A stretch of DNA of 64,000 bases, taken from positions 1,364,001-1,428,000 of the forward strand of contig CM026547.1 of the NCBI GenBank assembly GCA_014905635.1, in the 5' to 3' direction. Source of the stretch: Scenedesmus sp. PABB004 (taxonomy: Eukaryota). Under the pieces are notes generated by a model. It ran no database searches. It saw only the letters and a program-made list of their open reading frames with translations, and was not told where the DNA came from. Positions 1 to 46,467 of the stretch are shown one piece after another (positions within the stretch are counted from its first letter, which is position 1; the number at the start of each line of letters is the position of its first letter). Position numbers and translations under genes: made by a program.

Positions 1-155
1 TTTGCCGGCGTCCTGGCGCAGGTCGCGCCCGCGCAGGCGTTCCTCGGGTGCGCGGCGCAGGCCGCGCGGGGCGCCCGCCGCGCCCGCCCGCGCGCGTACG
101 GCTGCACCGCACGCGGCCGGCCCCGCCCACGCACCCGCCTGCGCCGCGCGCGCAG

Positions 156-1028
156 CTTCGGCGAGGGCAAGGCGCGCGAGGAGGCGTACGTGTCCGAGAC
201 GGTGCGGCGACGGCGCCGCCGCAGGGGGCGCGTCGCGCGCTGTGGCCGCCCGCGGCGTCGCCACGCGTGCCCCGTCGCCGCCCGCGGCGCGGCGCGCCGG
301 CCGGCCCACGCGCGCCCGCGCGCTGCCGCCGCCCGGGCGCCGCAGACCGCCATCCTGGGCAAGGTCAACACCGTGCTGGCGCTCGACAAGGACGACCCGA
401 CCAAGGAGGAGAGCGTCAAGGCGGTGAGCGCCAGCGCCGCCGCCCCAGCGCCGCCCCCCGCCCCCCAAAGCGCCGCGCCGGGGGCAGCGCGCGGCGGCCC
501 GCAGCCGCCGCCGCCGCCGACGCGCGTCCGCGTCCGCGTCCGCCGCGGGCGGCGCCGCCGCAGCTGCGCAAGGACATCAACGCCTGGGTCGCCCGGTACC
601 GCCGCGACGCGAGCTTCTCGGGCAAGCCCTCGTACGGGTGGGCCGCGCGGCGCGCCGCGCGCCGCCCAGGGGCGGCGCCGGCAGGCGCGGCCGGCGCGCG
701 CGCCGCCCGCGAGGCGCTGCGTCCGGCGCTCACGCCGCGCGCGGCCGCGCGCCCCGGCGCCGCTGCCGCAGCAACACCTACTCCGCGCTCAACGCGCTCG
801 CGGGGCACTACAACAGCTTTGGCGCGACCGCGCCCATCCCCAAGAAGCGCCTCGACCGCCTCTCCAAGGCGCGCGGGCGCCGGGGGCGGGGCGGGCGGCG
901 CGGCGCCGCCGCCCGCGCGGTCCGCCCGCCCGCCGGCGCGCGGCTCAGTGCGCCGCCCGCCGCGCGCCGCCCCGCCCGCCGCGCAGGAGCTGGGCGACGC
1001 CGAGCTGCTGCTGGCGCGCGGCCGCTGA
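156..1028 (+). CDS. PSB27: Photosystem II assembly factor Psb27 (5' end uncertain or outside window)
   Basis: Exons ~156-201, 346-423, 564-638, 771-868 and 987-1028 splice to ...AYVSET-TAILGKVNTVLALDKDDPTKEESVKA-LRKDINAWVARYRRDASFSGKPSYG-NTYSALNALAGHYNSFGATAPIPKKRLDRLSK-ELGDAELLLARGR*, the typical Psb27 signature (WVxRYRR, YSALNALAGHY). The last intron is GC-AG. Confidence 0.9.
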   Translation, partial: LRRGQGARGGVRVRDGAATAPPQGARRALWPPAASPRVPRRRPRRGAPAGPRAPARCRRPGAADRHPGQGQHRAGARQGRPDQGGERQGGERQRRRPSAAPRPPKRRAGGSARRPAAAAAADARPRPRPPRAAPPQLRKDINAWVARYRRDASFSGKPSYGWAARRAARRPGAAPAGAAGARAAREALRPALTPRAAARPGAAAAATPTPRSTRSRGTTTALARPRPSPRSASTASPRRAGAGGGAGGAAPPPARSARPPARGSVRRPPRAAPPAAQELGDAELLLARGR

Positions 1029-1386
1029 GCGGCGGCGGCGCCGCGCGGGCGGCCCTGCCGGGGGGGCCGGGCGGGGCGGCGGCGACGCAGCGGACCGCGC
1101 GCGCGAATGCTGCAATCGATCGCATGACGCATGGCGCGGGGGCCCAAATTTTGGCGCCGGAGGCGAACAAGTCGTAAAGCAACCTGATCACCTCTCGCCG
1201 AGCGCGGCAGCAGAGGTTCTGGCACGCCGCGCGCCCTTGCCGCCGCTGCTGCTGCCGGCGCCGCCTGCACGGCCGCACACACCACAGCCGCAGCCCCCTC
1301 CACCGCGGCGCGCGCCGTGCGCACCAAGGGGCCCCCGTCGCGAGGCAGCAGCAGCCGCCCGCGGACCATCAGCAGCAGGCTGCGCG

Positions 1387-3158
1387 ATGGCGGAGGTGGC
1401 TGCGGCCCCCGCCGCGGCCTCGCGCAAGCGCATCTCGCTGCGCCTCGACGACGGCAGCCTCATCGGCAGCGTGGAGAGCCTGCTGGGCAACGGGGGCTGC
1501 GGGACCGTGCTGCTCGGCTTTGAGGCCGCCTGCCGCACCGGGCGGGCCGGCAAGGCCGACCTGGAGCGCCTGGACAAGCTCATCTCCGCGTTCCAGGCGC
1601 GCGTGTCTGGATTCCACGCCATCCCGCGCAGCGAGCTCAAGGCGCGCAACCCGTACACCCAGGACGTGCGTGCCCGCGCGCCGCGGGGGGCCCGGGGGGA
1701 CGTGCCGGGTCCGGGGCCGGCCGCGGACGGCGCCGCGGCGCCATGCGCGGCGCCGCGGCGGCGCGGCGGCCCGACGAGCCCGCGTGCGATGCTGCTGCCG
1801 CCGCGCACGGCCGCCGCCGCCGCGGCGCAGGTGCAACGCGCGATCAAGCGCCAGCGCTCGCTCGCCAACGGCGAGGTCCCGCCCTTTGCGTCGCCCGAGC
1901 ACCTCGCGACGCCCGGCGGCGGCGGCGGCGACTTTGGCGGCAAGTGCATGGAGGTCCTGCAGCGCGTGCTCGGCGCGTGCGGGAGCATCGGCATGGTGTA
2001 CCACCTCCCCGCGCGCGACGTGTTCTACCGCCCCGTGAGCGAGACCTTCCCGGGCATCGCCGACCAGTACTACAGGCTCATCACGCGCCCCATGACCTTC
2101 CGCACGATCGAGGAGCGCCTCCGCGCCGGCGCCTACGCGGGCGCGCAGGAGTTTGCAGACGTGCGGCGGCGGCGGCGGCGCGGCGGCGCGGCGGCGTGGC
2201 GGCAGCGCGCGCGTCCTGCCGGCGCGGCGCGGCGCGGCGCCGCAGGGCGCTCACCGCGCTGCCGCCGCGCCGCGCCGGGGGCCGCTCCCGTCGCCAGGAC
2301 ATGCGGCTGGTGTTTGACAACTGCAAGACCTTCAACCCGCTGCCCAACGACCCCGTGCGCATCGCGTGCCTGCGCCTGTCCGAGGTCTTTGAGCAGCAGT
2401 GGGTCGCGACGGGGCTGTGCGCCGAGTCGGCGCGCGCGCGGCGCACCAACGCCGGCGTCGCGGCGCCCAAGTTCGAGCCCGAGGACTTTGACCCCGCGCC
2501 CCACCGCGCGCGGGTGAGCGGCGCGCGCGCGGGCGCGGGCGCGGCGCGGCGCGGGCGCGCAGCGCGGCACGCGCCTGACGCGGCGCCCCGCCTCCGCCGC
2601 GCGCAGGACGGCCTGGGCCGGCTGCAGAGCCACGAGGTGTCGTCGTACCGGGAGGAGGAGGTGGAGCAGCACGCCATCCCCGAGGACGTGCTGCAGGAGG
2701 TCGCGGCGGCGCTGCCGGAGCTGGGGCCCGACAACCTGCAGGGTGCGCAGCGGCGCGGCGCCGGGCGCGAGCAGCGGCCGCGGCCGCCGCAGGCGCGCGC
2801 TGACCGCGCCCGCTGACCACGGCCGCGCCCCGGCGCGCGCCGCCGGGTCTGGTCGCAGTCGCGCTGGGCAAGTTCAACGAGGGCGTGGTGTCGTACGACG
2901 AGGAGGGCGAGGTGGAGCTGGACCTGGAGAAGGTCGACTATGCGAGCCTCATGGACGTGCGTGTGACGTTATGTTATTGGGGGGGGGGGGCAGGGGCAGG
3001 GGCGGGGCAGGAGGCGTGCGGCGGCGCAGCGCAGCACCGGGCAGCAGCGGCGTGCGGCCGCGGCGGGGCGCCCCAGCCGCGCGCGCCCGCCCCGCGGCCG
3101 CAGGTCGACGCGTACATCCGGCAGGTCAACGGCCTGCCGCCGCGCGAGATGCCGGCGC

Positions 3159-3189
<31 letters not shown>

Positions 3190-3313
3190 GGCCGGCGTGA
3201 GCGAGAGCGACGGCGGTGCGTCGGGGCGGCGCGGGCGCGGCGGCGTGCGCGCCGAGGCGGACGACGACGACGAGTACTACGGCGAGGAGGACGACAGCGA
3301 CGACGACGACTGA
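1387..3313 (+). CDS. BET/GTE-type bromodomain protein with C-terminal ET(NET)-like domain
   Basis: Bromodomain VFYRPVSETFPGIADQYYRLITRPMTFRTIEERL...FAD-DMRLVFDNCKTFNP. ET-like LPELGPDNLQ...EGEVELDLEKVDYASL. Acidic tail ending in TGA at 3311-3313. About 5 GT-AG introns. Confidence 0.8.
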
Positions 3314-3792
3314 GCGGCGGCCGGGGCGCGAGCAGCAGCAGCAGCTGGAGGGGGTGGGGCGAGCGCGTGGGCTGGCGGGGCGCGGGCGGTCGTCGTCGGC
3401 ACGCGCATCGGGCGAGCACGCGGCCGCCGCCCGGCGGGCAGCGTGCCTGCTGCGCCACAAGCTGTGTGGCGATGGCCCGGGGCTGGTTGCGGCGAGCAGC
3501 GAGCGGCGGCTTGTGAACAGCGCTGAACCCTCCAGCGCACGAATGCCGCGCCACGCCGTCGCGCGGCAGCGGTCCCCACGCAGCGCTCCCCACTCGTCCG
3601 CACGTCCGCGGAGCTGCGCGCTGCGCCCTCTCGCGTAGTCAACAACAGCTTGCCCGCCTTTTCGTGCTCCGCGCCCCTGCTGCCCCCTCCCCCGCCCTGC
3701 TCCGCGGTACCGGGTGCAGCGCGACGGCCTGAGCGCGCCTGGCACAGCAGCGGCGCGCCATGCTGGACGGGGGCGCCGGGGCGGCGGCGCTG

Positions 3793-5512
3793 ATGGCGCA
3801 GGTGCGCCGCCCGCGCCCGGGCGGCCCCGCAGGCGCCGCTTGCGTCGCCGGTGCTGACGCCCCTGGCCCGCCGGCACCGCCGGAGCCCGCAGCCGGACGA
3901 CCCCACGCTGGAGCGCAGCTTCCGGGGCCACCGCGACGGCGTGACCAGCGTGGCGTTCAACTCCAACCTCAAGCAGCTCATCTCCGGCTCCCTGGACAAC
4001 TGCGTCATGGTGTGGAACTTCAAGCCCCAGCTGCGCGCCTTCCGCTTCGCCGGCCACAAGGCGCGGGCCGCGCCGCCGCGCCGCCGCGCGCGATGCTGGC
4101 GCCACCGCCGCGCTGCTGGCGCGTCGCGCCCGCCCACGCCACGCCGCGCGCGCGCCGCACGCACGCAGGCGGCGGTCTACTCGGTCGCCTTCTCGCCGTC
4201 GCACAGCCTGATCGCGTCGGGCTCCAAGGACAAGACCGTGCGGCTGTGGCAGCCCAGCGTGTGCGTGCCGCCCCGGGCCGCGGCGGCGCGGGGAGCGGCC
4301 CCGCCCCGCCCCGCCCCGCGCCGCGCCGCACGCGCGCTCACACGCGCGCCCCCGCCCCGCGCCGCCCCGCGCAGCGAGGGGCGCTCCACCGTGCTCAAGG
4401 CGCACACGGGCACCGTGCGCGCGGTCGGCTTCTCGCAGGACGGCGGCAGCCTCATCACCGCGTCGGACGACAAGACCGCCAAGCTCTGGTCCCTGCCCAC
4501 GCAGCGCTTCCTCTTCACGCTCAGCGGGCACAGCAACTGGGTGCGCGCGGCGCAGATCAGCCCGGACGGCCGCCTCGCGGTCACGGGCAGCGACGACCGC
4601 ACGGTCAAGGTGTGGGACCTGGCGAGCCGCCGCGTCATCCGCTCGTACGAGGGCCACGGCGCGGGCGTCAACACCGTGCTGTTCCACCCCGACGGCACCT
4701 GCATCGCCTCGGGCGGCGCCGACGGCGCGCTGCGGCTGTGGGACCTGCGCTCCGACGCCCTGCTGCAGCACTACGCCGGCTCGAGCGCCGGCGCCGCACT
4801 CACGGGCGCGGCGTGGCACCCGAGCGGCAACTTCCTGCTCACGAGCAGCCTCGACACCACGCTCAAGGTGTGGGACCTGCGCGAGGGGCAGCTCTTCTAC
4901 ACGCTGCGCGGCCACGAGGGCGCGTCGCTCGGCGTCGCGTTCAGCCCCGCGGGCGACTTTTTCGCGAGCGGCGGCGCCGACGAGCAGGTCATGGTCTGGC
5001 GCACCAACTTTGACCGCCAGCTCGAGGGCTACACCCTCGCCACGACCACGCGCGCCACCGACCACGCGCCGGCGCCGCCGGCGCCGCCGGCGCCCGCGCA
5101 GCAGCCGCCGCCGCAGCAGCGGCCGCCGCCGCCACCGCAGCAGCAGCACCACCACCACCAACAGCAGCAGCAGCAGCAGCCGCTCGGCGGCGGCGGCGCC
5201 CCAGCCGGGGGCTCGCCGGCGCGGCACCACGGCCACCACAAGGCGCACCCGGCGGCGGCCGGCGCCGCGGACGCCGCGGCCGGCGCCGACCAGGGCCTGG
5301 GGCTGGGCGGCGCGCCCGGTGGCGTGCTGGAGGTGCCGCCGCCGATGAACCTGGAGGGCGTGCCCGAGGCCGTCGCCGCGACGCTGCAGCACATCGTGGC
5401 GCAGCTCGACTCGCTCGTCGCGGTCGTCGGCGGCATGGAGCTGCGCCTGCGCCAGGCCGAGGAGCGGCTGGCGCGCGCCGAGGGCGCCGCGCCGGCGCGC
5501 GGCGCGCAGTGA
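3793..5512 (+). CDS. POC1: POC1 centriolar WD40 protein
   Basis: [59 protein letters not shown], then seven WD40 repeats ending [10 protein letters not shown]-terminal Poc1 coiled-coil ([30 protein letters not shown]). Confidence 0.92.
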
Positions 5513-29530: not shown

Positions 29531-31296
29531 TCAGTTGACCACGTCGACGACGACCTTCCTGCTCTTGAGCACGCTCCAGCGCAGGCGCTTCTGGTAGAGG
29601 GCGAAGCCCCACATGATGCCGATGATGGTCAGCGCCTTGACGCCCATGAGCTTGCGCTCGTCCTGCTCGGGGCTGGCCGCCCACGCGAGGAAGGTCGTCA
29701 CGTCCTTGGCCTGCTGGCTGCTGTTGCTCGGCGTGCCGTCGTCGTACTCGACGCCGCCGTCGGCGAGCATGCGCGGCATCGCGATCGCGCCGCCGGGGAA
29801 GTAGGGGTTGTAATAGAGGCCCTCGCGCACCTGGGGGTGTGGGGAGTGGCCGGGCGGGTGTGGCGGGTGTGGGTAGTTGAGGGGTGGGTGAGGGGGCAGG
29901 GCAGGCGCGCCCTGCCGCGGAGCGCCGCCCGCCGCCCGGCTGCCCCGCCGCGGCGGCGCGGGCGCGGGGCACACGCACGCTGACGCCCGCGGGCGGCTCC
30001 TTGTAGCCCAGGAGGAGGGAGAAGAGGTAGTTCTGGCCGTCCGGCCGCGCGTTGGTGATGAGGGAGAGGTCGGGCGGGTAGGCGCCGCCGTTGGCGTAGC
30101 GCGCGGCCTGCTCGTTCGCGTACGGCGCGGGCAGCGGGTCGCTGAGGCGGCCGGGGCGCTCAAACATCTCGCCCTCGTCGTTGGGGCCGTCCACGACCTG
30201 TGCGGCCGCACGCAAGGGGGTCGGGACGGGGCGGGTGTGCGTGGGGTGGGTGGGTGGGCGGCGGGTGGGGGGCGTGCGGGCGGAGGCGGCGCGCGCGCGG
30301 GCACAGCAGGCGGCGGGCGCGGGCGCGCGGGCGCGCGGGCGCGCGGGCGCGCGGCGCGGCGGTGCGCGGACCTCGATGTCCGCGGCCATGGCCTTGGCCT
30401 CCTCCTCGGTGTAGCACACGCCCACGAGGTCGCGGTAGTGGATGTACTCCATGCTGTGGCACGCGGCGCACACCTGCGCGCCGCGCCCAGCCGCCGCGCG
30501 CGCCGCGTCACGGCGGCGCCGCACGCCCGCCGGCGCGGGCGCCCCGCCCGCCGCGCGCGGCCGCGTGCTGGCGCCGGCGCGGGCGGCCGGCGCGCCGCCT
30601 CGCGGCCGCGCGAGCGCATGCGCGCGTGGTCTCGTGGTCTCGCCGCACCTGCTGATAGACCTGGAAGCCGCGCCGGATGGCGGCGTGGTCGTAGCTGTCC
30701 AGCATGCCCTCGTGGCTCCACGGCCACGCCGGCGCGTGCAGGCCGTGCTCGCCCTCGTGGTCGGCGCTCGCGACCCACGTGCAGCCTGCGCGGCGCGGCG
30801 CGCCCACGGCGTGACGCCGGCGCGGCTCCGAGCGCCGGCGCGCGCGGCCCGCCGCCGCTGCCGCGCGCCCGCCGCCGTGCCGCGCCGCAGCGCGCGCCGC
30901 GGCCGCACCCGACAGGCCCGCGATGGTCCCCGCGGCGCCCGCCAGCCACGAGCCGCGGCTGGAGCTGCCCTCCGCGGCGGCTGCGGTGGCGATGGCCTGC
31001 GGCGGCGGCGGCGGCGGCGCCGAAAGCTCGCACCAATCAGCAGCAGGCCTGCTCCCGCCCCCCGCGCCGCCCGCGCGCCGGCCGGCCGGGCGCCGCGCCC
31101 CGCGCAAAGATCGAGCGCGCACGGGCCATGGCGCGCCACTGCAGGCGCGCCCGCGCGGCGCACGGGCGTCGCGGGGCGGGGCGAGATCGACCTCCGCGCC
31201 CCCACGCACCCGGCCGCCGCTGCCTGCCCGCGCGCCCTGGGCGCCGCTCGCCACGCCGGCGCGCAGCGCCCGCAGCAGCGCGCCGCGGGCGGACAT
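29531..31296 (-). CDS. CYC1: Mitochondrial cytochrome c1
   Basis: Presequence [33 protein letters not shown] (CxxCH heme motif), [26 protein letters not shown] and a C-terminal TM helix. Five introns. Confidence 0.97.
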
Positions 31297-32211: not shown

Positions 32212-34533
32212 ATGAAGTGGCCGGGGCTCGGCGCGTGGGGTCCCTGGCAGACGGTTGCAGGCGGCGGGTGGCGGCGCGCGCCGCTGGCGCCTCGCAGGCG
32301 CACCGTGCTTGACGCGGCCTCCTCGGGCGACCTCGCATGGCTGAAGCAGCAGATCGAGGACGACCCCAAGCTCATAGGCAGCGTCACCCTGGTCAAGCGG
32401 CGCGGCGTGCTGCACCTGGCGGCCAAGCAGGGCCACTGGCACGTCATCGAGGCCGTCCTCCAGCCCCTCATCGAGGCCGTGCGCACCGAATACTACGTGA
32501 GTCGCGCACCCCAGGGCCCCCGCCGGGCCCGCGAGGGCGCCCGCGGCCCGGCCGCGCGCCGCGGCGCGCCGCCCTACAACGCCTGTTGGGCGTGCTCGCG
32601 CGCCGCCGCGGCGCCGCGCGGCCGCGAATTGCCCGCCGCGCCGCTCCCCCGCACCGCAGGCTCACCAGGAGGCGCAGGCTGACGCTGCGGAGCAGCCGGG
32701 GGCCGCGGAGGAGCAGCAGCAGCAGCAGCAGCAGCAGCCTGGCGCCGCGGCGACGCAGCAACCGCCGGAGCCGGCGGCGGCGCCGCAGCCGCAGCCGCAG
32801 CAGCAGCAGCCGCCGCCGCCGCCGCAGCCGCAGCCGCAGCAGCAGCAGCCGCCGCCGCCGCCGCAGCAGCAGCAGCAGCAGCAGCCGCAGCCGCCCGCGC
32901 GGCAGCAGCAGGGCGCGACGGAGCTGCAGCTGCCGTCGTTCAAGCGGCTGCGGTCGACCGTCAACGCGCGCGACCTCTACCGCCGCACGCCGCTCATCGT
33001 CGCGGCCAAGCAGGGCCACCTCGAGTGCACGCAGCTGCTCGTCGAGGCGGCGTCAAACCTCTTCGCCGTGGACCGCGAGGGCAACACGTGCGCGCGCCGC
33101 GCCGCGCCGCGCCGCGCCCGGCTTGTTCCCGCCACGGCCGGCCCCCGCCGCAACGCGCACCCCGCGCGCCGCGCAGGAGCCTGCACTATGCCGCGCTGCA
33201 CGGGCACGGCGAGGTCGTGGAGTACCTGCTGCGCAAGGCGTCCGACCGCAACCTGGCGACGCGGTTTGTGAACAAGCGCAACCTGAGCGGCTTCACCCCG
33301 CTCCACTACGCGGTGTGGGGCTGCAACGAGGCGCTCGTGCAGGACCTGCTGCAGGCGGGCGCGGACGTGTCGGTGGCCAACGACCGCGTCTTTGACGCGT
33401 GGGTCACCGTGCCCGTCGGCAGCACGCCGCTGCACCTCGCGGTCGTGCGGCACTCCATGCCCATCGCGCTTGCGCTGCTGCAGGCGCACGTGAGCGCCGC
33501 CGCCGCCGCCGCCGCGGCCCGGCCGCCGCCGCCGCCGCCGCCGCTAGGGCGCCTGCCGACGCCCCGCCGCCGCCGGGCCTGGCCGCGCGCGCGCGCAGGT
33601 GGTGCAGGTGGTGAGCCGGCCTGCGGGCAGCCCGGCGCCGGCGGACCCCCGCACGGTGGCCAACCTGTACGGCATGAACCCCGCCCAGCTCGCGGCGCAC
33701 CGCGGCCTGCGCCAGATGTCGCGCGTGCTGCTGCCCTCGCTCTCGCTCGCGCGCGTGCTGGAGGCGTTTGAGCCCACCGACGCGGCGCGGTGCGCGCGCT
33801 GCGCGCGCGGGCGCGCGCGCCCCGCAGGGCGCGCCCCGCAGCGCGCCCCGCTGCAGCGCGCGCCGCTCGCCGCCGCTCACCGCCTGCGCGCGCCCGCAGG
33901 TCGTACGGCCCGCCCAGCCTGCGGGCGATTGCCGCGGCCGCGATGCAGGCGGAGCTCATGCGCCAGCTGGACGGCCTGGAGGCGGCGCAGCGCGCCGCGC
34001 AGGAGGCGGCGCTGGCCGACGGCCCGCGCGAGCGCCCGTGCGGCGCGTGCGCGCGCGCGGCGGGCGGCGTCGTGTGCGTCGACGCGCGGCAGGCGAGCAC
34101 CGACGACGACGCGTCCGAGGCGGAGTCGCCGTCCGAGCCGCCCTCGCCGTGCAGCCTGTCGGCGTCGTCGGACGCGTCGGGCCGCGCGTCGCTCGCGGGC
34201 GCGTGCGCACGCGGCGGCTGCTCGTGCGGCCGCGCCGCGAGCGCGGGGCTCGCGCGCGCCGCGAGCAGCGGGTGGTACGAGGAGTCGTGCTGCGTGTGCT
34301 GGGAGGAGGACGTGGCGGTCGCGATCGCGCCCTGCTGCCACGCGCTCTGCGTCGCGTGCGCGCGGCAGCTCGTCGCGAGCGCCGCGCGCACCGGCGCGAC
34401 GTGCCCGCTCTGCCGCCGCTACATCGCGGCGTTCGGGCTGCTCCCGCACGGCACGAGCAAGGCCGCGCGCGCGCGCTCGCTGGCGTCGACGCCGCCGGCG
34501 GCGGCGGCGGCGCCCGAGCTCGCCGCCGCGTGA
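32212..34533 (+). CDS. Ankyrin-repeat RING-finger E3 ligase (XBAT-like)
   Basis: Ankyrin motifs GVLHLAAKQGH, RTPLIVAAKQGH, FTPLHYAVWG and STPLHLAV. C3HC4 RING CCVCWEE...PCCHALCVAC...CPLCR. Poly-Gln/Pro insert. Confidence 0.85.
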
Positions 34534-35200: not shown

Positions 35201-38200
35201 ATGGCGGCCCCCGCCGGCCCCGGCGCGGCGGTGTTCCACCCGCAGCAGACGCAGGGCTACGTGTGAGTGCGGCCGCTCGCCGCCGCGCGGCCGGCGGGGG
35301 CACCCGCGGCGCCGCGCGCGCGGCGGCGGCGGCCCGACGGTCGCTGCTGCTGCGAGCCGCGCGCCGCGGCTGCCCATGCACGCGCGGCGGCGGCGCGCCG
35401 CGTGCCGGACCCGCCCTCGCGTCGCGCCCGGGCAGGCGCCCGGGCGCGCCCGCAGCAGGGCCGCGCGCTCACGCCGTCCGCCGCTGCTGGGCCGCGCCCC
35501 GCGCGCAGGCTGTGCTGCCTCTGCGGCACCAACATCCTGCCCAACCCCTCCAACATGTGCGTCAACTGCATCCGCTCGCAAGTGGACATCACGGAGGGCA
35601 TCCAGAAGCAGGCGCGCGGCGCGCGGGTGTGGGGAACAGTGCGGCAGCGACGCGCCCGGCGCCGCAGCGCCCGAGCGGACGCCGCGCCGCGCCGCCGCAG
35701 GTGACCATCCTGTGGTGCAAGGAGTGCGGGCGCTACCTGCAGCCGCCCAAGCACTGGGTCAAGGCGGAGCCGGAGAGCAAGGAGCTGCTCACGTTTTGCA
35801 CCAAGCGCATCCGCGGCCTGGCGGTGCGGCGCGGGGGGGGGGGGGGGGCCGGGCGCAGGGCGCGGCGCGGCGGCAGCGCCGCGGCAGCAGCGCCGGGGGC
35901 GTGATGACATGTATTAGAATACGCAACAAAAGGCTGACACTCACTGATGCATCAACTATTGGAGCTGTCTGACCCCCGGGGCTGTCCCCGCCGCCGCGCC
36001 CGCCCGCGCGCGCCGGCCGCCGCTGACGCGCCGCCGCTTCTGCTGTGCTGCGCCGCGGCGCCGCGGCGCGCAGAAGGTGAAGCTGGTCGACGCGGGCTTC
36101 ATCTGGACCGAGCCGCACTCCAAGCGCCTCAAGGTCAAGCTCACCATCCAGGCGGAGGTCATGAACGGCACCATCCTGCAGCAGGGCTTTGTGGTCGAGT
36201 TCATCGTGGAGAACCACATGTGCATGGAGTGCAACCGCGCCAACGCCAACCCCAACTCGTGGACCGCGTGCGTGCAGGTGCGGCCGGCGCGGCGCCCGCC
36301 CGCACCCGCGCGCGCTGCGGCCGCGCCGCCGCCGCCGCGGCGCCCCGCGCCCCGCCGTCGACCGCCGTGCGCCGAACCGCCCCGCGCCGCGCGCCGTGAC
36401 CGCGCATGCCCCAGGTGCGGCAGCACGTGCCCCACAAGCGCACCTTCCTCTACCTCGAACAGCTCATCCTGCGAGCCGGCGCCGACGCGCAGTGCATCAA
36501 CAGTGCGCGCGCCCGCCGCCACCCGACGCGCCCCCAGCGCTCGCCGCCGCCGCCGCCGCCGCCGCCGCGCCCGCGCCCGCCCGCCTGCACGCCCACCCGC
36601 CCATGCTTGCCCGCCCGCCCGCGCGCGCGCCTGCGCAGTCCGCGACATCCACGAGGGCCTCGACTTTTTCTTCGCCAACCGCGCCCACGCGCTCAAGCTC
36701 ATAGACTTCCTCCAGGCACGCGCCCCGCGCCGCGCCGCCGCGTGCTGCGCGCCGCGGTCCGTTCCCCCGCGCCCGCGCGCGGCGGCAGCGGCGGCGGCCC
36801 ACCTCCCGCGCCGCCGCCGCGCCACGCGCGCGCGCGCGCCCGCGCAGGGCGTCGTGCCGGCGCGCTTCCGCGCGGACAAGCAGCTCGTGAGCCACGACAT
36901 CCACACCTCGACATACAACTACAAGTACACCTTCAGCGTGGAGATCGCGCCCGTCTGCAAGGCGCGGCGCTGCCCCGGCTGCGCCACGCTGCCCCGGCTG
37001 CGCCGCGCGCTCGCGCCGGCCGCGGCGCCCGCGCCCGCGCTCCCCGCGCCCGCGCGCCGACCCCGCCGCCGACCCTGCTTCCGCCCGCCCGCCCGCCGCC
37101 GCGCCGCCCCCGCCACGCAGGACGACCTCATATGCCTGCCGCCCAAGCTCGCGAGCAGCCTGGGCAGCCTCGGCCCGCTCGTGCTCTGCAGCCGCGTGAC
37201 CAACACGCTCACGCTGCTCGACCCCGCCAACCTGCGCGCCGCGCACATGGAGGCGCCCGTGTACTGGCGCGCGCCGTTTGGTGCGATGATGAGCGCGCGG
37301 CAGCTGGTCGAGTACGTGGTGCTGGACGTGGAGCCGCTGCAGGGCGCCGCGGCGGGCGGGTACGGCGCGTTTGCGTCGGGCGGCACGCGCTGGTGCCTCG
37401 CCGAGGCGACCGTCGCGCGCAAGAGCGACTTTGGGCGCAACGACACCGTCTTCTACACGCGCACGCACCTGGGACACATCCTGCACCCCGGTGCGCGCCC
37501 CCGCGGCCCCGCGCCGCGCCCCCGCGGCACTGCGCCGCGCCCCCGCGGCACCGCGCCGCGCGCCGCGCAACTCGCGCCCGCGCGCTGCGCCCGCGCGACG
37601 CCCGCGTGACGCCGCCGCGCGCCGCGGCGCCTGCGCCAGGCGACAGCGCGCTCGGGTACGACCTGGCCAACGCCAACCTCGTCAACATGGACTTTGAGGC
37701 CCACGTGGCGCGCAACGGCGCGGTGCCGGACGTCCTGCTCGTGCGCAAGAGCTACGAGGAGCGGCGCCGCAAGAGCCGCGGCCGCGCGGCGCGCGCGTGG
37801 AAGCTCAAGCACCTGCCCATCGAGGCCGGCGAGGACAGGCGCGCGGCGCGCGCGGGCGGGCCCGGCGGCCGGCCGCCAGTGCACGCGCGCGTCCCTGCCG
37901 CGCCTGCCGCCTCTCCCCCCGCACCTCGCCTCACACCCGCGCCGCGCTGCGCCGCTGCGTGTGCGTCAGGGGGCGCAACGAGGCGGCGGAGGCGGCCGAC
38001 CGCGAGCGCTTCATGGAGGAGCTGGAGGAGGACGCAGAGATGCGCGCGCGCGTGGCGCTCTACAAGGCCCCCGGCGCCGGCGCGCCCGCGGCGCCGGCGG
38101 GCATGGACGACGGCGAGACCGACGACGGCGAGGGCGAGCTGCCGCAGGTGCCGCTGGAGGAGCTGCTGGACGACCTGGAGGCGCTGGGGCTGGACGACGA

Positions 38201-38270
38201 CGAGCACGAGGGCCACACGGCGGCGCAGCAGCAGCAGCAGCACGGCGACTCGATGATGATGGACGACTGA
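35201..38270 (+). CDS. NMD3: 60S ribosomal export adaptor NMD3
   Basis: CCLCGTNILPNPSNMCVNCIRSQVDITEGI, CKECGRYL, LVDAGFIWTEPHSKRLKVK, HKRTFLYLEQLI and RTHLGHILHPGD. C-terminal NES-like LEELLDDL. Nine introns, four of them GC-AG. Confidence 0.97.
35893..35979 (+). ncRNA. Intronic box C/D snoRNA with an 18S rRNA guide
   Basis: AT-rich island in an NMD3 intron. Box C GTGATGA 35901-35907, D' CTGA 35934-35937, C'-like TGATGC 35945-35950, box D CTGA 35969-35972. Terminal stem CCGGGGG (35893-35899) pairs with CCCCCGG (35973-35979). Guide CTATTGGAGCTG (35956-35967) is complementary to the conserved 18S sequence CAGCUCCAAUAG. Confidence 0.88.
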
Positions 38271-38671: not shown

Positions 38672-41490
38672 ATGGCGCCGCACGTGTCGCTCGCGCGCGC
38701 CGGGCGCCTCCCGGCCGCCGCCGGCCGGCCCGCGCCGCAGCGCGCGCCCCGCGCCGTCGCCGCGCACGCCACCGGCGGAGACGCGGCGCGCGCGGCCGCC
38801 GCGGCGATGGCGGCCGGCATCGTGCTGGTGCGTCGCGGCCGGCGGCCCGCCGGCGGCGCGCATTTGCCGCCGGCGCCGGCCGCGCCGACCCACGCCGCGC
38901 CCGCACCTGTGCACCGCGCGCAGGCGACCTCCGGCGGGCCCGCCGCCGCCGCGCCGCCGCCGCCGCTCGCGCCGCCCGCGGCCGAGGCGCGCCTCCCTGA
39001 GCGCGCGCCGCCGGGCATCGCGCGCGCGGCGAGCGGGCCGCCGGCCAACATGGAGGACCCGGACAGCTATTTTGACGCGGTGCGGCGCGACGCGCGCGCG
39101 CATGCATGCGTCGAGCCGCTGCGCGCGCCGCTGACCGCCCGCCCGCCCGCGCGCCCGCGCCGCGCAGCTCGAGGGCGGCGCGCGCGCCGCGCCTGCGCTG
39201 GCGGTCAAGTATGTCGAGGCGGGGCGCCCCGTGCGCCCGCTCGCCACGCTGGCCGACCTCAACGCCGACGTGCGCGGCGCGGCCGGCGACTACCGGGACC
39301 CCGCCATCGCCACGCCCCAGGACAAGGTCGCCGGTGAGGCGCGCGCCGCGCTGAGCTGCTGGGGCGGCCAGCCGCCTGCGCGCGCGCCCGCCCCCCGCCG
39401 CGCGCGCCACGCCCCGGCCCGCGCCCGCGCTGCGCGCTCTCTCCCTCCCGCCCAGCGCCGCCGCTGACCGCGCCGCCTCGCCCTCGCCTGCCCGCCCCCA
39501 CGCCCACGCGCAGACGCGCTGAGCGGCGCCTCCACGCCCGACGTCGGCGTCGACCTGGGCGCGGCGGGCGACAAGCTGAGCGGTGCCGCGGACGACGCGG
39601 CCGCCAAGGCCAAGAGCATGTTTGGCAGCGGCAGCAGCAGCGCCGCGCCCGTGCGCCCGCTCGCCACGCTGGCCGACCTCAACGCCGACGTGCGCGGCGC
39701 GGCCGGCGACTACCGGGACCCCGCCATCGCCACGCCCCAGGACAAGGTCGCCGGTGAGGCGCGCGCCGCGCTGAGCTGCTGGGGCGGCCAGCCGCCTGCG
39801 CGCGCGCCCGCCCCCCGCCGCGCGCGCCACGCCCCGGCCCGCGCCCGCGCTGCGCGCTCTCTCCCTCCCGCCCAGCGCCGCCGCTGACCGCGCCGCCTCG
39901 CCCTCGCCTGCCCGCCCCCACGCCCACGCGCAGACGCGCTGAGCGGCGCCTCCACGCCCGACGTCGGCGTCGACCTGGGCGCGGCGGGCGACAAGCTGAG
40001 CGGTGCCGCGGACGACGCGGCCGCCAAGGCCAAGAGCATGTTTGGCAGCGGCAGCAGCAGCGCCGCGCCCGTGCGCCCGCTCGCCACGCTGGCCGACCTC
40101 AACGCCGACGTGCGCGGCGCGGCCGGCGACTACCGGGACCCCGCCATCGCCACGCCCCAGGACAAGGTCGCCGGTGAGGCGCGCGCCGCGCTGAGCTGCT
40201 GGGGCGGCCAGCCGCCTGCGCGCGCGCCCGCCCCCCGCCGCGCGCGCCACGCCCCGGCCCGCGCCCGCGCTGCGCGCTCTCTCCCTCCCGCCCAGCGCCG
40301 CCGCTGACCGCGCCGCCTCGCCCTCGCCTGCCCGCCCCCACGCCCACGCGCAGACGCGCTGAGCGGCGCCTCCACGCCCGACGTCGGCGTCGACCTGGGC
40401 GCGGCGGGCGACAAGCTGAGCGGTGCCGCGGACGACGCGGCCGCCAAGGCCAAGAGCATGTTTGGCAGCGGCAGCAGCAGCGCCGCGCCCGTGCGCCCGC
40501 TCGCCACGCTGGCCGACCTCAACGCCGACGTGCGCGGCGCGGCCGGCGACTACCGGGACCCCGCCATCGCCACGCCCCAGGACAAGGTCGCCGGTGAGGC
40601 GCGCGCCGCGCTGAGCTGCTGGGGCGGCCAGCCGCCTGCGCGCGCGCCCGCCCCCCGCCGCGCGCGCCACGCCCCGGCCCGCGCCCGCGCTGCGCGCTCT
40701 CTCCCTCCCGCCCAGCGCCGCCGCTGACCGCGCCGCCTCGCCCTCGCCTGCCCGCCCCCACGCCCACGCGCAGACGCGCTGAGCGGCGCCTCCACGCCCG
40801 ACGTCGGCGTCGACCTGGGCGCGGCGGGCGACAAGCTGAGCGGTGCCGCGGACGACGCGGCCGCCAAGGCCAAGAGCATGTTTGGCAGCGGCAGCAGCAG
40901 CGCCGCGCCCGTGCGCCCGCTCGCCACGCTGGCCGACCTCAACGCCGACGTGCGCGACGCGGCCAGCGACTACCGGGACCCCGCCGGCGCGGTGCAGCAG
41001 GACAACGCCACGGGTGCGCACCACCACACCTGCGCTGCGCGGGCCGGGAGCATGCGCATGCGCTGAGCGGCCTTGCCGGCGCGCACCGGCCCCGCGCTTC
41101 GCCCACCCACCGCTCGCCGCCGCTCGCCGCGCAGACGCCGCGCGCGATGCCGGCGCGCGCGCGACCTCTGCGTACAAGGAGGCGACCTCCACGGCGCCCG
41201 TCAAGAAGCTGGCCAAGCGCGCCGCGCGCGCGCTCAAGCCCAAGCCCGGCACCAGCGCCGGCGTGGGCGCGGGCTACGGCGCCAGCGGCCGCGTGCGCGA
41301 CTCGGCGGGCGTGCTGCGCAACGCCGACGACCTGCGCGGCCCCGAGGCGCTCCCCGTCGGCAACGCGCGCCTGAGCCGGCCCCTCGTGCGCGACAGCCTC
41401 GGCGTGCGGCGCGACGGCGCGACCAACGAGACCGGCGCCGCCGGCGCGGGCGGGCGCGGCCTCGCCAAGCGCGTGGCCGACAAGCTGTGA
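38672..41490 (+). CDS. Plastid/thylakoid-targeted low-complexity protein with ~4 identical 80-aa repeats
   Basis: The N-terminus resembles a transit peptide plus hydrophobic AxA signal (MAPHVSLARAGRL...AAAMAAGIVL-ATSGG...AEA). The spliced frame stays open through the repeats and ends ...GLAKRVADKL*. Confidence 0.7.
39228..40985 (+). repeat. Perfect 420-bp tandem repeat, ~4.2 copies (180-bp intron + 240-bp exon)
   Basis: Sequence lines recur identically every 420 nt (39241, 39661, 40081, 40501). First intron 39334-39513, first full exon 39514-39753. The last partial copy has two substitutions. Confidence 0.97.
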
Positions 41491-41994: not shown

Positions 41995-43602
41995 ATGGCG
42001 CGCTGGGCGGCGGCGGCGGCGCCGCGGCAGCTGGCGTGCGGCCTGCTGGCTGCGCTGCTGCTGCCGGCGGTTGCGGCGTGGTCGTGGCGGACCCGGCCCG
42101 ACATCAGCGCCAACGCGGCGTGCCGCGCCGCCAGCGGCGGGCACGTATGGAAGGGCGACAGCATCTACGGCCAGCTCGAGGTGCGGCCCCCGCCGCCGCA
42201 GCGCGCCGCACCCGCCGCCGCCGCGCCCGCAGCGCGCCAGCGCGCCGCAGCGCCGCCGCCCTTTCTCTCACCACACCGCGCGCGCGCTGCGCCCGGCGCG
42301 CGCCGGCGGGCAGGCGTACCTGCAGGTCAACGGCCCCGTGCTGCGCCTGCCGCGCAACGCGACCGACATCACGACCGCGGCCACGATTCTGCAGCTCGCG
42401 GCGCCGGGGCTGAAGCTCGTGCTCGACCCGCTGCTCTACCTCCAGCTCCTCCCCGAGCCGCGCGGCGTGCCGCGCGTCATCCACATGACGCTCCGCGACA
42501 AGCGCGCGCTCGCGCCGCACCAGCTGCTCTGCATGCTCAGCTGGGGCCGCCGCCACGCGGGCTGGGCGCTGCTGCTGTACGACGACGCCGACATGGCCGC
42601 CTACATGGAGCGCTACTTCCCCGCCCTCATGCCCAGTGAGCGGCGGCAGACACACGCGGCGACGCACCCGCCGCCCAGCAGCTGCGCTGCCCAGCAGCTG
42701 CGCTGCCCAGCAGCTGCGCTGCCCCAGCCCAGCGCGGCGGCGGGGGCAGGCGGGCGGCGGGGCGGTAGCGGCCGCGCCCGACCCCGCGCGCCCGTGCGCC
42801 GCGCGCCGCTCGCAGCCTTCCGCCAGCTCGCGACGCCGGTGGAGAAGTCTGACGCTTGGCGGTACGCGGTGCTGTGCGGGCACGGCGGCGTGTACACCGA
42901 CACCGACACCGTCGCGGCGGCGCGCTTTGAGGACTGGACGTCCTTCAACGCCACGCCCGAGCCGGGGCTGATCGTGGGGCTGGAGAACCGCTTCTACAGC
43001 CAGCAGGTGAGACCGGTGTAACACCGCGCCGCCGCGCGTGGGAGACACGGGGGACACGGGGGACGCGGGAGACGCGCTGCACGCGGCAGCCGTGTGGTCT
43101 CACGGCGCGGGGCGCGTGGTGCGCGGACGCAGGAGGCGGAGGAGGAGTCGTACGTGCACGAGACGCAGGTGACGCAGTGGACGATCGCCGCCAAGCGCGC
43201 GCACCCCGTGGTGTGCCGCATGGGCGCCGCGATCAAGGCGTTTGTGGAGCGCGAGGCGGCCGACGGCAACGCGCTCGAGGCGGTGCGCGCCGCGCCGCGC
43301 CGCGCCGGCGCCACGCTGGCGGCGCGCCGCCCGCAAGGGCCGCGCGGCGGGCCGCGCGGGCCGGCGGGCCGCCGCCCACGCGCGCCGCCGTCGCTGCCGC
43401 GCAGGCGGTGGGGCACGACGCGGCCATCCTGCTGCGCACGGGGCCGGGCATCTGGAGCACCGAGGTGCACCGCTTCCTTGAGCAGATGGGCAGCAGCGCG
43501 CGCGAGGTCGCGCCCGCCGGCGGCGTCGCGGGCGACCTGGTCGTGCTGCCCGTCGCGGCGTTCGGCTGCAACTTCAGGTCGCCGCCGCCGCCGCCGCCGC
43601 CG

Positions 43603-44998: not shown

Positions 44999-46467
44999 AT
45001 GCGCCACGCCGCTGCCGCCGCCGGCGCCGTGCTGGTGGCGTGCTGCCTGCTGGGCCTGGCGACGTGCGCAGTGCCAGGTGAGCCGCAGGGCGCGTGAACG
45101 CATCAGCGGGCGGCGCATTGGCGGACGACGGCCCGGCAACGGGCTGCGTTCTGCCGCGCCGCCGCCGCCGGCAGGCGCGCACGTTGCGCCCGCCGCCGCA
45201 GATGCTCCCACCCAGGACTGCAACGGCCTGGAGGGTGACCAGCTGCAGGTGCGGCCGGGCTGCGGCGGCAGCGGCGCGACAGCCGCTGAGCAGCCGCTGC
45301 TCACTGGCGGTGTCGCCGATCCGTGGTGCTAACGCGCAGACCTGCCGCTCCCGCAGGGCTGCGTCAATGCCTTTGTGGACCTGCTGCGAGCTGCAGAGGG
45401 CCTTGAGGCGTGTGGCGTTGACCAGCGCTGCATCGACCAGTGGTGCGGCGCGGTCCGCGGCAGCTGCCGGTCCGCAGCAGCCTGCGGAGCTGCCGGTCCG
45501 CGGCAGCCTGCGGACCGGCTGGTCCGCAGGCTGCGCCGGCGGACCAGCCGCGCGGCCGGCCGCGCGGCTGCCGACGTCGGCGCGCCGCGCGCGCCGCAGG
45601 GTCAATGCAAAGCACCTGCTGACGACCTGTGGCCTGATGCTGGCCGACTGCGCGTGCCTGGAGACGTTCCCGCCGCCCGACATGACGCCCGAGGAGCGTG
45701 CGGCGCAGCTGCGCGCCTGCCTCAACGGCTGGGTGCTCACGCGGCAGGCGGAGCTCGCCGCCGCGACGTGCGGCACCGCGGCGGACGCGCGCGCGCGGCA
45801 AGAGTGCCTCAACGCCTGGGCCGAGGCGCGGCGCGTCGAGGAGACGCCGCGGGGCGGCCCCGAGGGCGGGCGCTGCCCCGCCGGCCCGCCGGCCGCGCGG
45901 CAGGCGTGCGTAGACGCGTGGGCCAACACCAAGATGTGCCAGCAGCGCGGCATCACCGCGCCGACGTGCGCCGGCGCGTGCGCCCGGCGGACCAGCCCCG
46001 CCGCGCGCCGCGCGTGCGTCAACGACTGGCTGCTCGGCCAGGCGTGGCTCGCGGGCGCGCTCGCGCCGCGCCTGCACGGCGGCCGGCCGTGCGTGGCGCG
46101 GACGTGGAACAGCACCGCGCCGCGGCAGCGCTGCCTGGACTCGTACGTCGTCGGCCGCGCGATGGCGCGCGACCCCGGCGCGCTGGTGCGGCTCGGGCCG
46201 CTCGGCGACGGCGTCGACTGCCGCACGCTGTCCATGCCCCCGCGGCCGGGGCAGCCAGAGGGCCAGCTCGACGCCACGCTCGCCGCCTGCGCGGCTCGGC
46301 TGCTGGAGGCCGCGGCCGCGGGCGACGGCGGCGACGAGCGGCTCGCCGCGTGCTTTGCCGTCGGCGCGCCGGAGGGCGCGCCGCGCCGCGCGTGCGTGCG
46401 GGCCTGGGTGCAGGGCGCGGCGCGGAGGGACACGTGGTGGCGCATCCCCTTCAGCTGGCTCCCCTGA
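44999..46467 (+). CDS. Secreted Cys/Trp-repeat protein (unknown family)
   Basis: Signal peptide MRHAAAAAGAVLVACCLLGLATCA. About 8-9 repeats of C-x(n)-R-x-x-C-[VLI]-[ND]-x-W. Three GT-AG introns keep the frame. Confidence 0.7.

Follow-up and report, generated by a model that had tools for sequence, protein, structure and literature searches.

Contig CM026547.1 of Scenedesmus sp. PABB004 (GCA_014905635.1) was analysed over positions 1,364,001–1,428,000, a stretch of 64,000 nucleotides with a GC content of about 80% (hereafter the window; positions are those of the window unless stated otherwise). On its plus strand, the window carries at 38672–41490 a gene of eight exons (597 codons and a stop, with a GC fraction of 0.97 at third codon positions) whose product of 597 residues contains five copies of a core of about 30 residues. 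These cores are encoded within an exact tandem array in which exon and intron are repeated together.

Gene structure and the tandem array

The array spans 39228–40956 and consists of four units of 420 bp followed by a further 49 bp, with identity at 1309 of 1309 positions at a lag of 420. Each unit is made up of core, intron and spacer. Recomputing the gene structure reproduced the 420-bp unit of the original prediction, with its 180 nt GT–AG intron and its 240 nt exon symmetric in phase 1, and likewise the 80-residue translation and the five DYRDPA motifs. The four repeat introns (39334–39513, 39754–39933, 40174–40353 and 40594–40773; each 180 nt, GT–AG, phase 1) are identical to one another, as had also been claimed. 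Three of the four repeat exons (exons 4, 5 and 6 at 39514–39753, 39934–40173 and 40354–40593; 240 nt, phase 1 at both ends) are identical as well, each encoding 80 residues with an amphipathic-helix spacer followed by a core. The fourth (exon 7, 40774–41013) has the same spacer and an older, divergent core, with 13 base differences that all lie within 40957–41012, and its unit is 90% identical as protein. Unit and exon boundaries do not coincide: the duplicated unit begins within exon 3, in a 49-bp block (39228–39276) common to exon 7 (40908–40956, 100% the same), which is the likely site of crossing-over.

The array is far beyond chance. It is the sole exact run of at least 100 bp in the 64-kb window at lags of 60–5000, and in three 200-kb samples of the genome (600 kb) the only exact tandem array of at least three copies is a 172-bp satellite. 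Searches of the genome, the counts of which are lower bounds, found no further copy of the unit or the tail and no paralogue of either. The locus is a recently homogenised exon-plus-intron array in a single-copy gene; the recent expansion or homogenisation that had been predicted is supported by the array identity, by the chimeric unit and by copy-number variation in Tetradesmus obliquus (see below). The complete lack of differences over 1309 positions could also be explained by an assembly artefact, in which the copy number or the perfect identity is false and the real gene has fewer units. This explanation is most improbable, since relatives carry 4–8 cores in independent assemblies and the array has unique flanks inside a contig of 4.85 Mb without N. 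The same assembly retained copy-level variants in the 172-bp satellite (at least 36 copies), which indicates that tandem arrays were not flattened wholesale. One point does weigh against perfect identity, in that a few differences among the copies could have been lost in polishing.

The satellite itself runs from L019:3777–10000 on into L020 (G000:C1 from 2,003,777) for ∼8 kb, with 99% matches. Near position 471,965 of G000:C3 (L056), an exact run of 364 bp at a lag of 413 (∼1.9 copies) contains splice-like words and is possibly another young exon-plus-intron duplication.

Upstream of the array, exon 1 (38672–38827) encodes a transit part, which is basic and free of acidic residues, as well as the hydrophobic core belonging to a further signal of thylakoid type. 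Intron 1 (38828–38923; 96 nt, GT–AG, phase 0) is followed by exon 2 (38924–39079), which encodes the A-x-A end of this signal (residues 59–61; cleavage is predicted near 38950), a Pro-rich stretch and the first half of a conserved acidic-aromatic N-terminal block. Removal of intron 2 (39080–39167, 88 nt) restores this block, which is unbroken in seven relatives, and exon 3 (39168–39333) encodes the end of the block and the first copy of the core. Downstream, intron 7 (41014–41134, 121 nt) is unrelated to the repeat intron, and exon 8 (41135–41490) encodes a basic tail with an isoelectric point (pI) of 11.1 and a conserved block near the C-terminus. The predicted start at 38672 and stop ending at 41490 (41488–41490) are both right. 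Part of the tail (41290–41400) contains short stretches that resemble decayed cores and a twice-repeated V-R-D-S element, which are conserved in P0004-like relatives.

The public model of this gene, P0001 (38672–46467), shares these exons and has the same first 597 residues, after which it runs on to 1421 residues through a glycosyltransferase. A convincing splice donor that overlaps the stop codon explains the error. A true fusion with the glycosyltransferase downstream was rejected on account of the ends of 13 relatives, which lie 18–48 residues past the start of the conserved tail block, and of the signal-peptide start of the next gene near 41995; the gene thus ends naturally with the stop at 41490, and the fused model is an annotation error. 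P0001 combines three genes under the glycosyltransferase name, the second being a DXD glycosyltransferase that starts near 41995 and the third a Cys-rich repeat protein with a signal-like start (near 45000–46467; no Pfam match). Elsewhere in the window, a cytochrome c1 gene is located at ∼29531–31296 on the minus strand, and the upstream neighbours on the plus strand encode NMD3 and a RING-finger protein (∼35250–38270 and 33772–34533, respectively), with no apparent functional link. A metagenome run with a small share, whose contigs touched 11 of 30 bins, carries no information on copy number or splicing.

The repeat family and the origin of the array

Word-based searches returned seven (including the model of this gene), eight and six proteins, and 90 matches at E ≤ 0.001 came from a profile search against 1.84 billion representatives. 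Records that name an organism are from T. obliquus and Scenedesmus spp. only. Among the 27 proteins that were looked up for a name, the rest carry none or are hypothetical proteins from metagenomes, except for automatic labels that were judged to be spurious. No Chlamydomonas or Chlorella record appeared among the family matches, which is weak evidence of absence. The exons of this gene fit no curated family in Pfam and gave nothing above the cut-off in NCBIfam; a Pfam GCV_H match on the relative P0004 (26.8 bits, 41 positions) was rejected as spurious, as it covers spacer sequence only and is absent from this gene. A sequence search of solved structures gave no matches, a protein atlas gave no usable match and no loci were recovered from the DNA of relatives in metagenome and genome contigs, either by protein or by pattern. 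Literature searches on Scenedesmus linkers, on lumenal disordered repeat proteins, on late embryogenesis abundant (LEA) proteins of the Scenedesmaceae and by accession yielded no description of the protein. Judged by sequence, it represents an undescribed and unannotated repeat family of the Scenedesmaceae with a strongly conserved core.

The core consensus, A-D-[LQ]-N-A-D-V-R-x5-Y-R-D-P-A-[IG]-A-[TVI]-[PQ]-Q-D, was derived from 94 distinct cores in 89 of the 99 stored proteins; these cores were picked by the pattern of the Tyr block, so that the count is circular for those four columns. Arg60, Tyr66, Asp68 and Pro69 are invariant in an alignment (A4) of the window exon and 47 hand-picked fragments, with the Tyr present in 48 of 48 rows. 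The mean frequency of the modal residue (47 rows) is 0.75 for the core versus 0.47 for the spacer, although the core value is inflated because the rows were found by core scoring and the fragments chosen by hand, which counts against reading too much into the difference.

Most of the family matches are single-exon fragments from prokaryotic gene finders. In the genomic fragments that contain a core, a Gly stands 14 residues past the Tyr in 71 of 85 and at 18 residues in 11 more (82/85), and is followed by unrelated sequence, as expected for read-through into a phase-1 intron. This pattern indicates that the layout with the exon as module is old and that relatives have kept the intron that follows the core. 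A Gly at the same offset is also found in ten of 43 cores of continuous proteins, a finding that tells against this interpretation to the extent that the intron marker is imperfect. Near relatives (P0035 and P0050) of the continuous multi-unit proteins P0004, P0005, P0014, P0015 and P0100 (contigs of 1.0–2.6 kb) read into introns, and the continuous proteins are probably spliced transcripts of relatives.

The unit in the window is chimeric. Its spacer shares 72% identity with unit 3 of T. obliquus, whereas its core is closer to unit 2 (85% identity) than to unit 3 (55%). The three T. obliquus records contain eight, eight and seven cores, among which a marked variant ranks fifth, sixth or fourth, and the unit that was amplified in this species is a different one of 77 residues. 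P0004 alternates two unit types, and relatives overall have 4–8 cores. Trees of spacers and of cores are mostly without resolution. The position of the array edges in the shared 49-bp block, together with the chimeric unit, fits unequal crossing-over between two older cores; the seven or eight shuffled cores of the T. obliquus alleles and the conserved intron fit the same process and count against an assembly artefact. We therefore consider it very probable that the ancestral gene had two cores with a single intron and spacer between them (the present exons 3 and 7), and that unequal crossing-over within the 49-bp block common to the cores raised their number to five. Each event would have copied a core, an intron and a spacer, and the reading frame would have been kept because the exon is 240 nt long with phase 1 on both sides. 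Repeat genes that evolve by tandem duplication of symmetric exons have in-frame exon modules, copy-number variation and homogenised copies, all of which are seen here. This gene differs in that the breakpoint lies inside the exon, within the conserved core, and different lineages have consequently amplified different spacers.

Presequence and composition of the product

The first acidic residue of the product is at position 37, and an uncharged stretch of 32 residues from position 41 closes in A-x-A. Such an arrangement resembles the Sec-type thylakoid signal, which is defined as a transit peptide followed by a charged N-region, a hydrophobic core and A-x-A (PMC7906790). The best hydropathy over 12 residues is 2.22, compared with 2.11 for PsbO and 1.29 for RbcS of the same alga. 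The end of the transit part (R-x-V-x-x-x-A), the length and the hydrophobic core closely match those of its PsbO and plastocyanin, and plastocyanin has the same bipartite layout. The same layout, with a hydropathy of 2.08, is found in T. obliquus and another Scenedesmus, so that the second hydrophobic A-x-A signal is present in this protein and in both named relatives with an N-terminus. No twin arginine (RR) occurs in the first 60 residues of this gene product, P0003 or P0009. A stromal protein would have a transit peptide only; here, a second PsbO-like signal is present, unlike in the alga's own RbcS. The plastid-type targeting with a thylakoid-type presequence that had been predicted is thus supported, and the protein is probably located in the thylakoid lumen.

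The cytochrome c1 encoded in this window, which served as a control, has a bipartite presequence with an A-x-A end as well; the layout by itself would therefore also be compatible with the mitochondrial intermembrane space, which weakens the case for the lumen. A protein of the same architecture that resides in that space, or that is anchored in a membrane through an uncleaved hydrophobic segment, is nevertheless unlikely given the close match in transit end, length and core to PsbO and plastocyanin. These two lumenal proteins share with the product the bipartite presequence, the hydrophobic core, the A-x-A end and the lack of twin arginine. They are folded and globular, whereas the present protein is built of repeats and shows no compact fold in models.

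The mature chain is 51% Gly, Ala, Ser and Pro. The repeat regions are acidic, as originally noted (pI 4.3–4.9), intact tails are basic (pI 10.5–11.1) and the net charge per residue is low (0.02–0.05). The grand average of hydropathy (GRAVY) is −0.23 for residues 81–597 and −0.09 for the repeat. A model of the unit (48 rows) has a predicted local distance difference test score (pLDDT) of 58 and a predicted template-modelling score (pTM) of 0.23, with helices at 14–36 and 48–60, an extended Tyr block and no compact fold. The spacer helix is moderately amphipathic, with a hydrophobic moment of 0.27–0.33 calculated without a control, and the core contains five acidic and four basic residues. The full-length model of the T. 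obliquus protein reaches a pLDDT of 35 and a pTM of 0.16; it rests on an alignment of four rows, and a charge–hydropathy plot places four of four sequences on the folded side, both of which detract from a reading of the chain as disordered. Disorder is likely in the models but not clean. The idea of a multivalent disordered scaffold consequently stands in part: short helices at linker-like spacing and low model confidence agree with it, while the charge–hydropathy result does not. Fold searches with the unit model gave no Foldseek match and elsewhere a best Z of 3.5 at an r.m.s.d. of 31, which is uninformative for a low-confidence model.

Possible functions

Such strong conservation of a core that recurs 4–8 times, with spacers free to vary in between, is most simply explained if the core binds a fixed partner, and the lumen signal implies that the partner would be exposed to the lumen. 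As a mechanism, the precursor would enter the chloroplast, cross the thylakoid Sec translocon unfolded and be cleaved at A-x-A, a route that we regard as probable from the presequence. Once in the lumen, it has perhaps an even chance of forming a flexible sticker-and-spacer chain. Each core of about 30 residues would bind one copy of the partner surface, for which the simplest candidate is a portion of an abundant thylakoid complex that faces the lumen. The basic tail and the spacer helices, which are amphipathic and variable, would rest on the membrane. In this way, lumenal faces would be tethered or spaced; the number of exon copies would determine how far the chain reaches and how avidly it binds, and binding could respond to acidification of the lumen through the conserved Asp residues. 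Taken as a whole, a Sec-imported lumenal tether of the sticker-spacer type, which binds a putative partner multivalently with a valency that follows the exon number, is our tentative reading of the gene, at somewhat less than an even chance. More speculatively, the protein might be a lumen-side counterpart of pyrenoid linkers that cross-links or condenses a thylakoid complex, possibly under a pH switch, with 4–8 stickers that vary between strains or alleles by whole exon-plus-intron modules. No lumen-side multivalent sticker-spacer protein surfaced in the literature searches. A complex prediction with four copies of the unit, for which the alignment was not used, scored 0.01 against a mark of 0.32 and is evidence neither for nor against this proposal.

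The spacer rather than the core would be the functional part if the protein were an LEA-like or COR15-like protectant of lumenal membranes, with spacer helices rich in Ala, Lys and Asp that would fold under desiccation, freezing or crowding to cover the membrane, and with the core as a secondary module. LEA_4 (group 3) proteins, including the plastid COR15A, likewise have Ala/Lys/Asp-rich amphipathic helices with flexible stretches between them; residues 14–36 of the unit are modelled as such a helix, and Scenedesmaceae induce LEA genes on drying (PMC7382218). The label UPF0337/YjbJ that the relative P0065 carries in its source also speaks for this reading. The LEA_4 11-mer is at borderline level in five of 11 units of relatives (shuffle p of 0.009–0.068), namely four of six distinct T. 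obliquus units (p of 0.048–0.068) and one of three P0004 units (p of 0.009). In the two unit types of this gene, it is at chance level (p of 0.44–0.47), with at most one weak 11-mer per 80 residues. The searches against LEA families that had been proposed were run, and Pfam returned no LEA match in six exons, 13 proteins and 48 alignment rows; an LEA_4 search of the genome did not recover its control and is without weight. The chain also lacks the high hydrophilicity of LEA proteins, being only mildly hydrophilic and on the folded side of the charge–hydropathy line. LEA_4 proteins average 25% identity, and five of 18 in Arabidopsis lack the 11-mer motif (PMC7215670). Conservation in the present family, however, peaks in a strictly conserved core that is not LEA-like. 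An LEA-like stress protein, which was initially held to be equally plausible, fails these family tests and is rather unlikely, although the spacer helix may work like an LEA helix.

An acidic buffer or store of cations (Ca or Mn) in the lumen, with one site per core, would account for the conservation of the Asp, Asn and Gln residues of the core (0.91–1.00 in 47 rows) and is consistent with the acidic nature of the N-terminal block. The calcium-binding loop Dx[DN]xDG has Gly at loop position 6. In the core, D-x-N-x-D is followed by Val (0.98 of 47 rows) instead of this Gly, the stretch is modelled as a helix and the net charge per residue is low, which makes such a store quite unlikely.

The five cores also invite comparison with pyrenoid Rubisco linkers. 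EPYC1 of Chlamydomonas is likewise targeted to the plastid, with five short repeats (the stickers) at similar spacing, low complexity and a narrow taxonomic range. The resemblance of DYRDPA to the Rubisco-binding motif [DN]W[RK]xx[LIVA] that had been suggested is not borne out: neither this motif nor any Trp occurs in the 597 residues, the position is Tyr throughout the alignment, and P0002, P0003, P0004 and P0008 also lack Trp. A loose scan of the genome for Trp-type motifs gave 4075 matches, fewer than in the reversed control. The motif Trp of Chlamydomonas packs on M87, L90 and V94 of RbcS, and the V94D substitution severely impairs binding (bioRxiv 10.1101/2020.08.16.252809). The sole RbcS gene found in Scenedesmus sp. 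PABB004 (a lower bound; L011:1290–2461, G000:C42) has Asp aligned to V94, so that the host RbcS looks unfit for EPYC1 and another linker would be needed if this alga has a pyrenoid; on these residues, its linker is probably not of the EPYC1 type.

The family might then supply the missing linker of the Scenedesmaceae, a stromal protein the cores of which bind Rubisco, probably on RbcL, through a new Tyr/Arg motif. The host RbcL (L017) retains E51, D86, I87 and Y97, the four contacts of CsLinker, and a Tyr combined with basic clusters is employed by the linker of Ulva (bioRxiv 10.64898/2026.07.16.738900). The FLIPPer criteria for linkers are structured repeated elements 20–120 residues apart in a largely disordered chain, with the linkers being lineage-restricted (PMC11570498). 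A core spacing of 71–80 residues lies within this range, as do the values of 80 here and 50–80 in relatives, with two helices modelled per unit. In the Chlorella screen of the same paper, though, 12 of the 13 proteins with linker-like architecture were not the linker. CsLinker of Chlorella and SUPA1 of Ulva are, as is proposed for the present protein, independent sticker-spacer proteins with an aromatic and basic sticker. As described, they differ in being stromal with basic clusters, whereas the core here is much longer and contains more acidic than basic residues. Described stickers set basic residues against acidic patches on Rubisco, in contrast to the acidic repeat seen here, and the second thylakoid-type signal adds to the differences from EPYC1. 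A Rubisco linker of the kind outlined is thus very unlikely, and on sequence grounds the protein is probably not one. Scenedesmus and the Sphaeropleales are not mentioned in the reviews and preprints searched for these names, including PMC13655443 and bioRxiv 10.64898/2026.07.17.739135. A second rbcL copy (L018, G000:C79:836–1763), located where the plastid contig begins, is split between two frames and contains a stop; it is probably an assembly overlap of the circular plastid genome.

With this gene, a group of algae that is widely cultivated gains an unannotated repeat family whose motif is sharply conserved. A public gene model that hides the protein in a fusion of three genes is also corrected. 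The array catches changes of valency at the level of the exon in the act. The V94D-type change in RbcS makes testable the question of what condenses Rubisco in the Scenedesmaceae and, if the present protein is lumenal and multivalent, it would provide a handle on how lumen spacing or the organization of thylakoid complexes is set.

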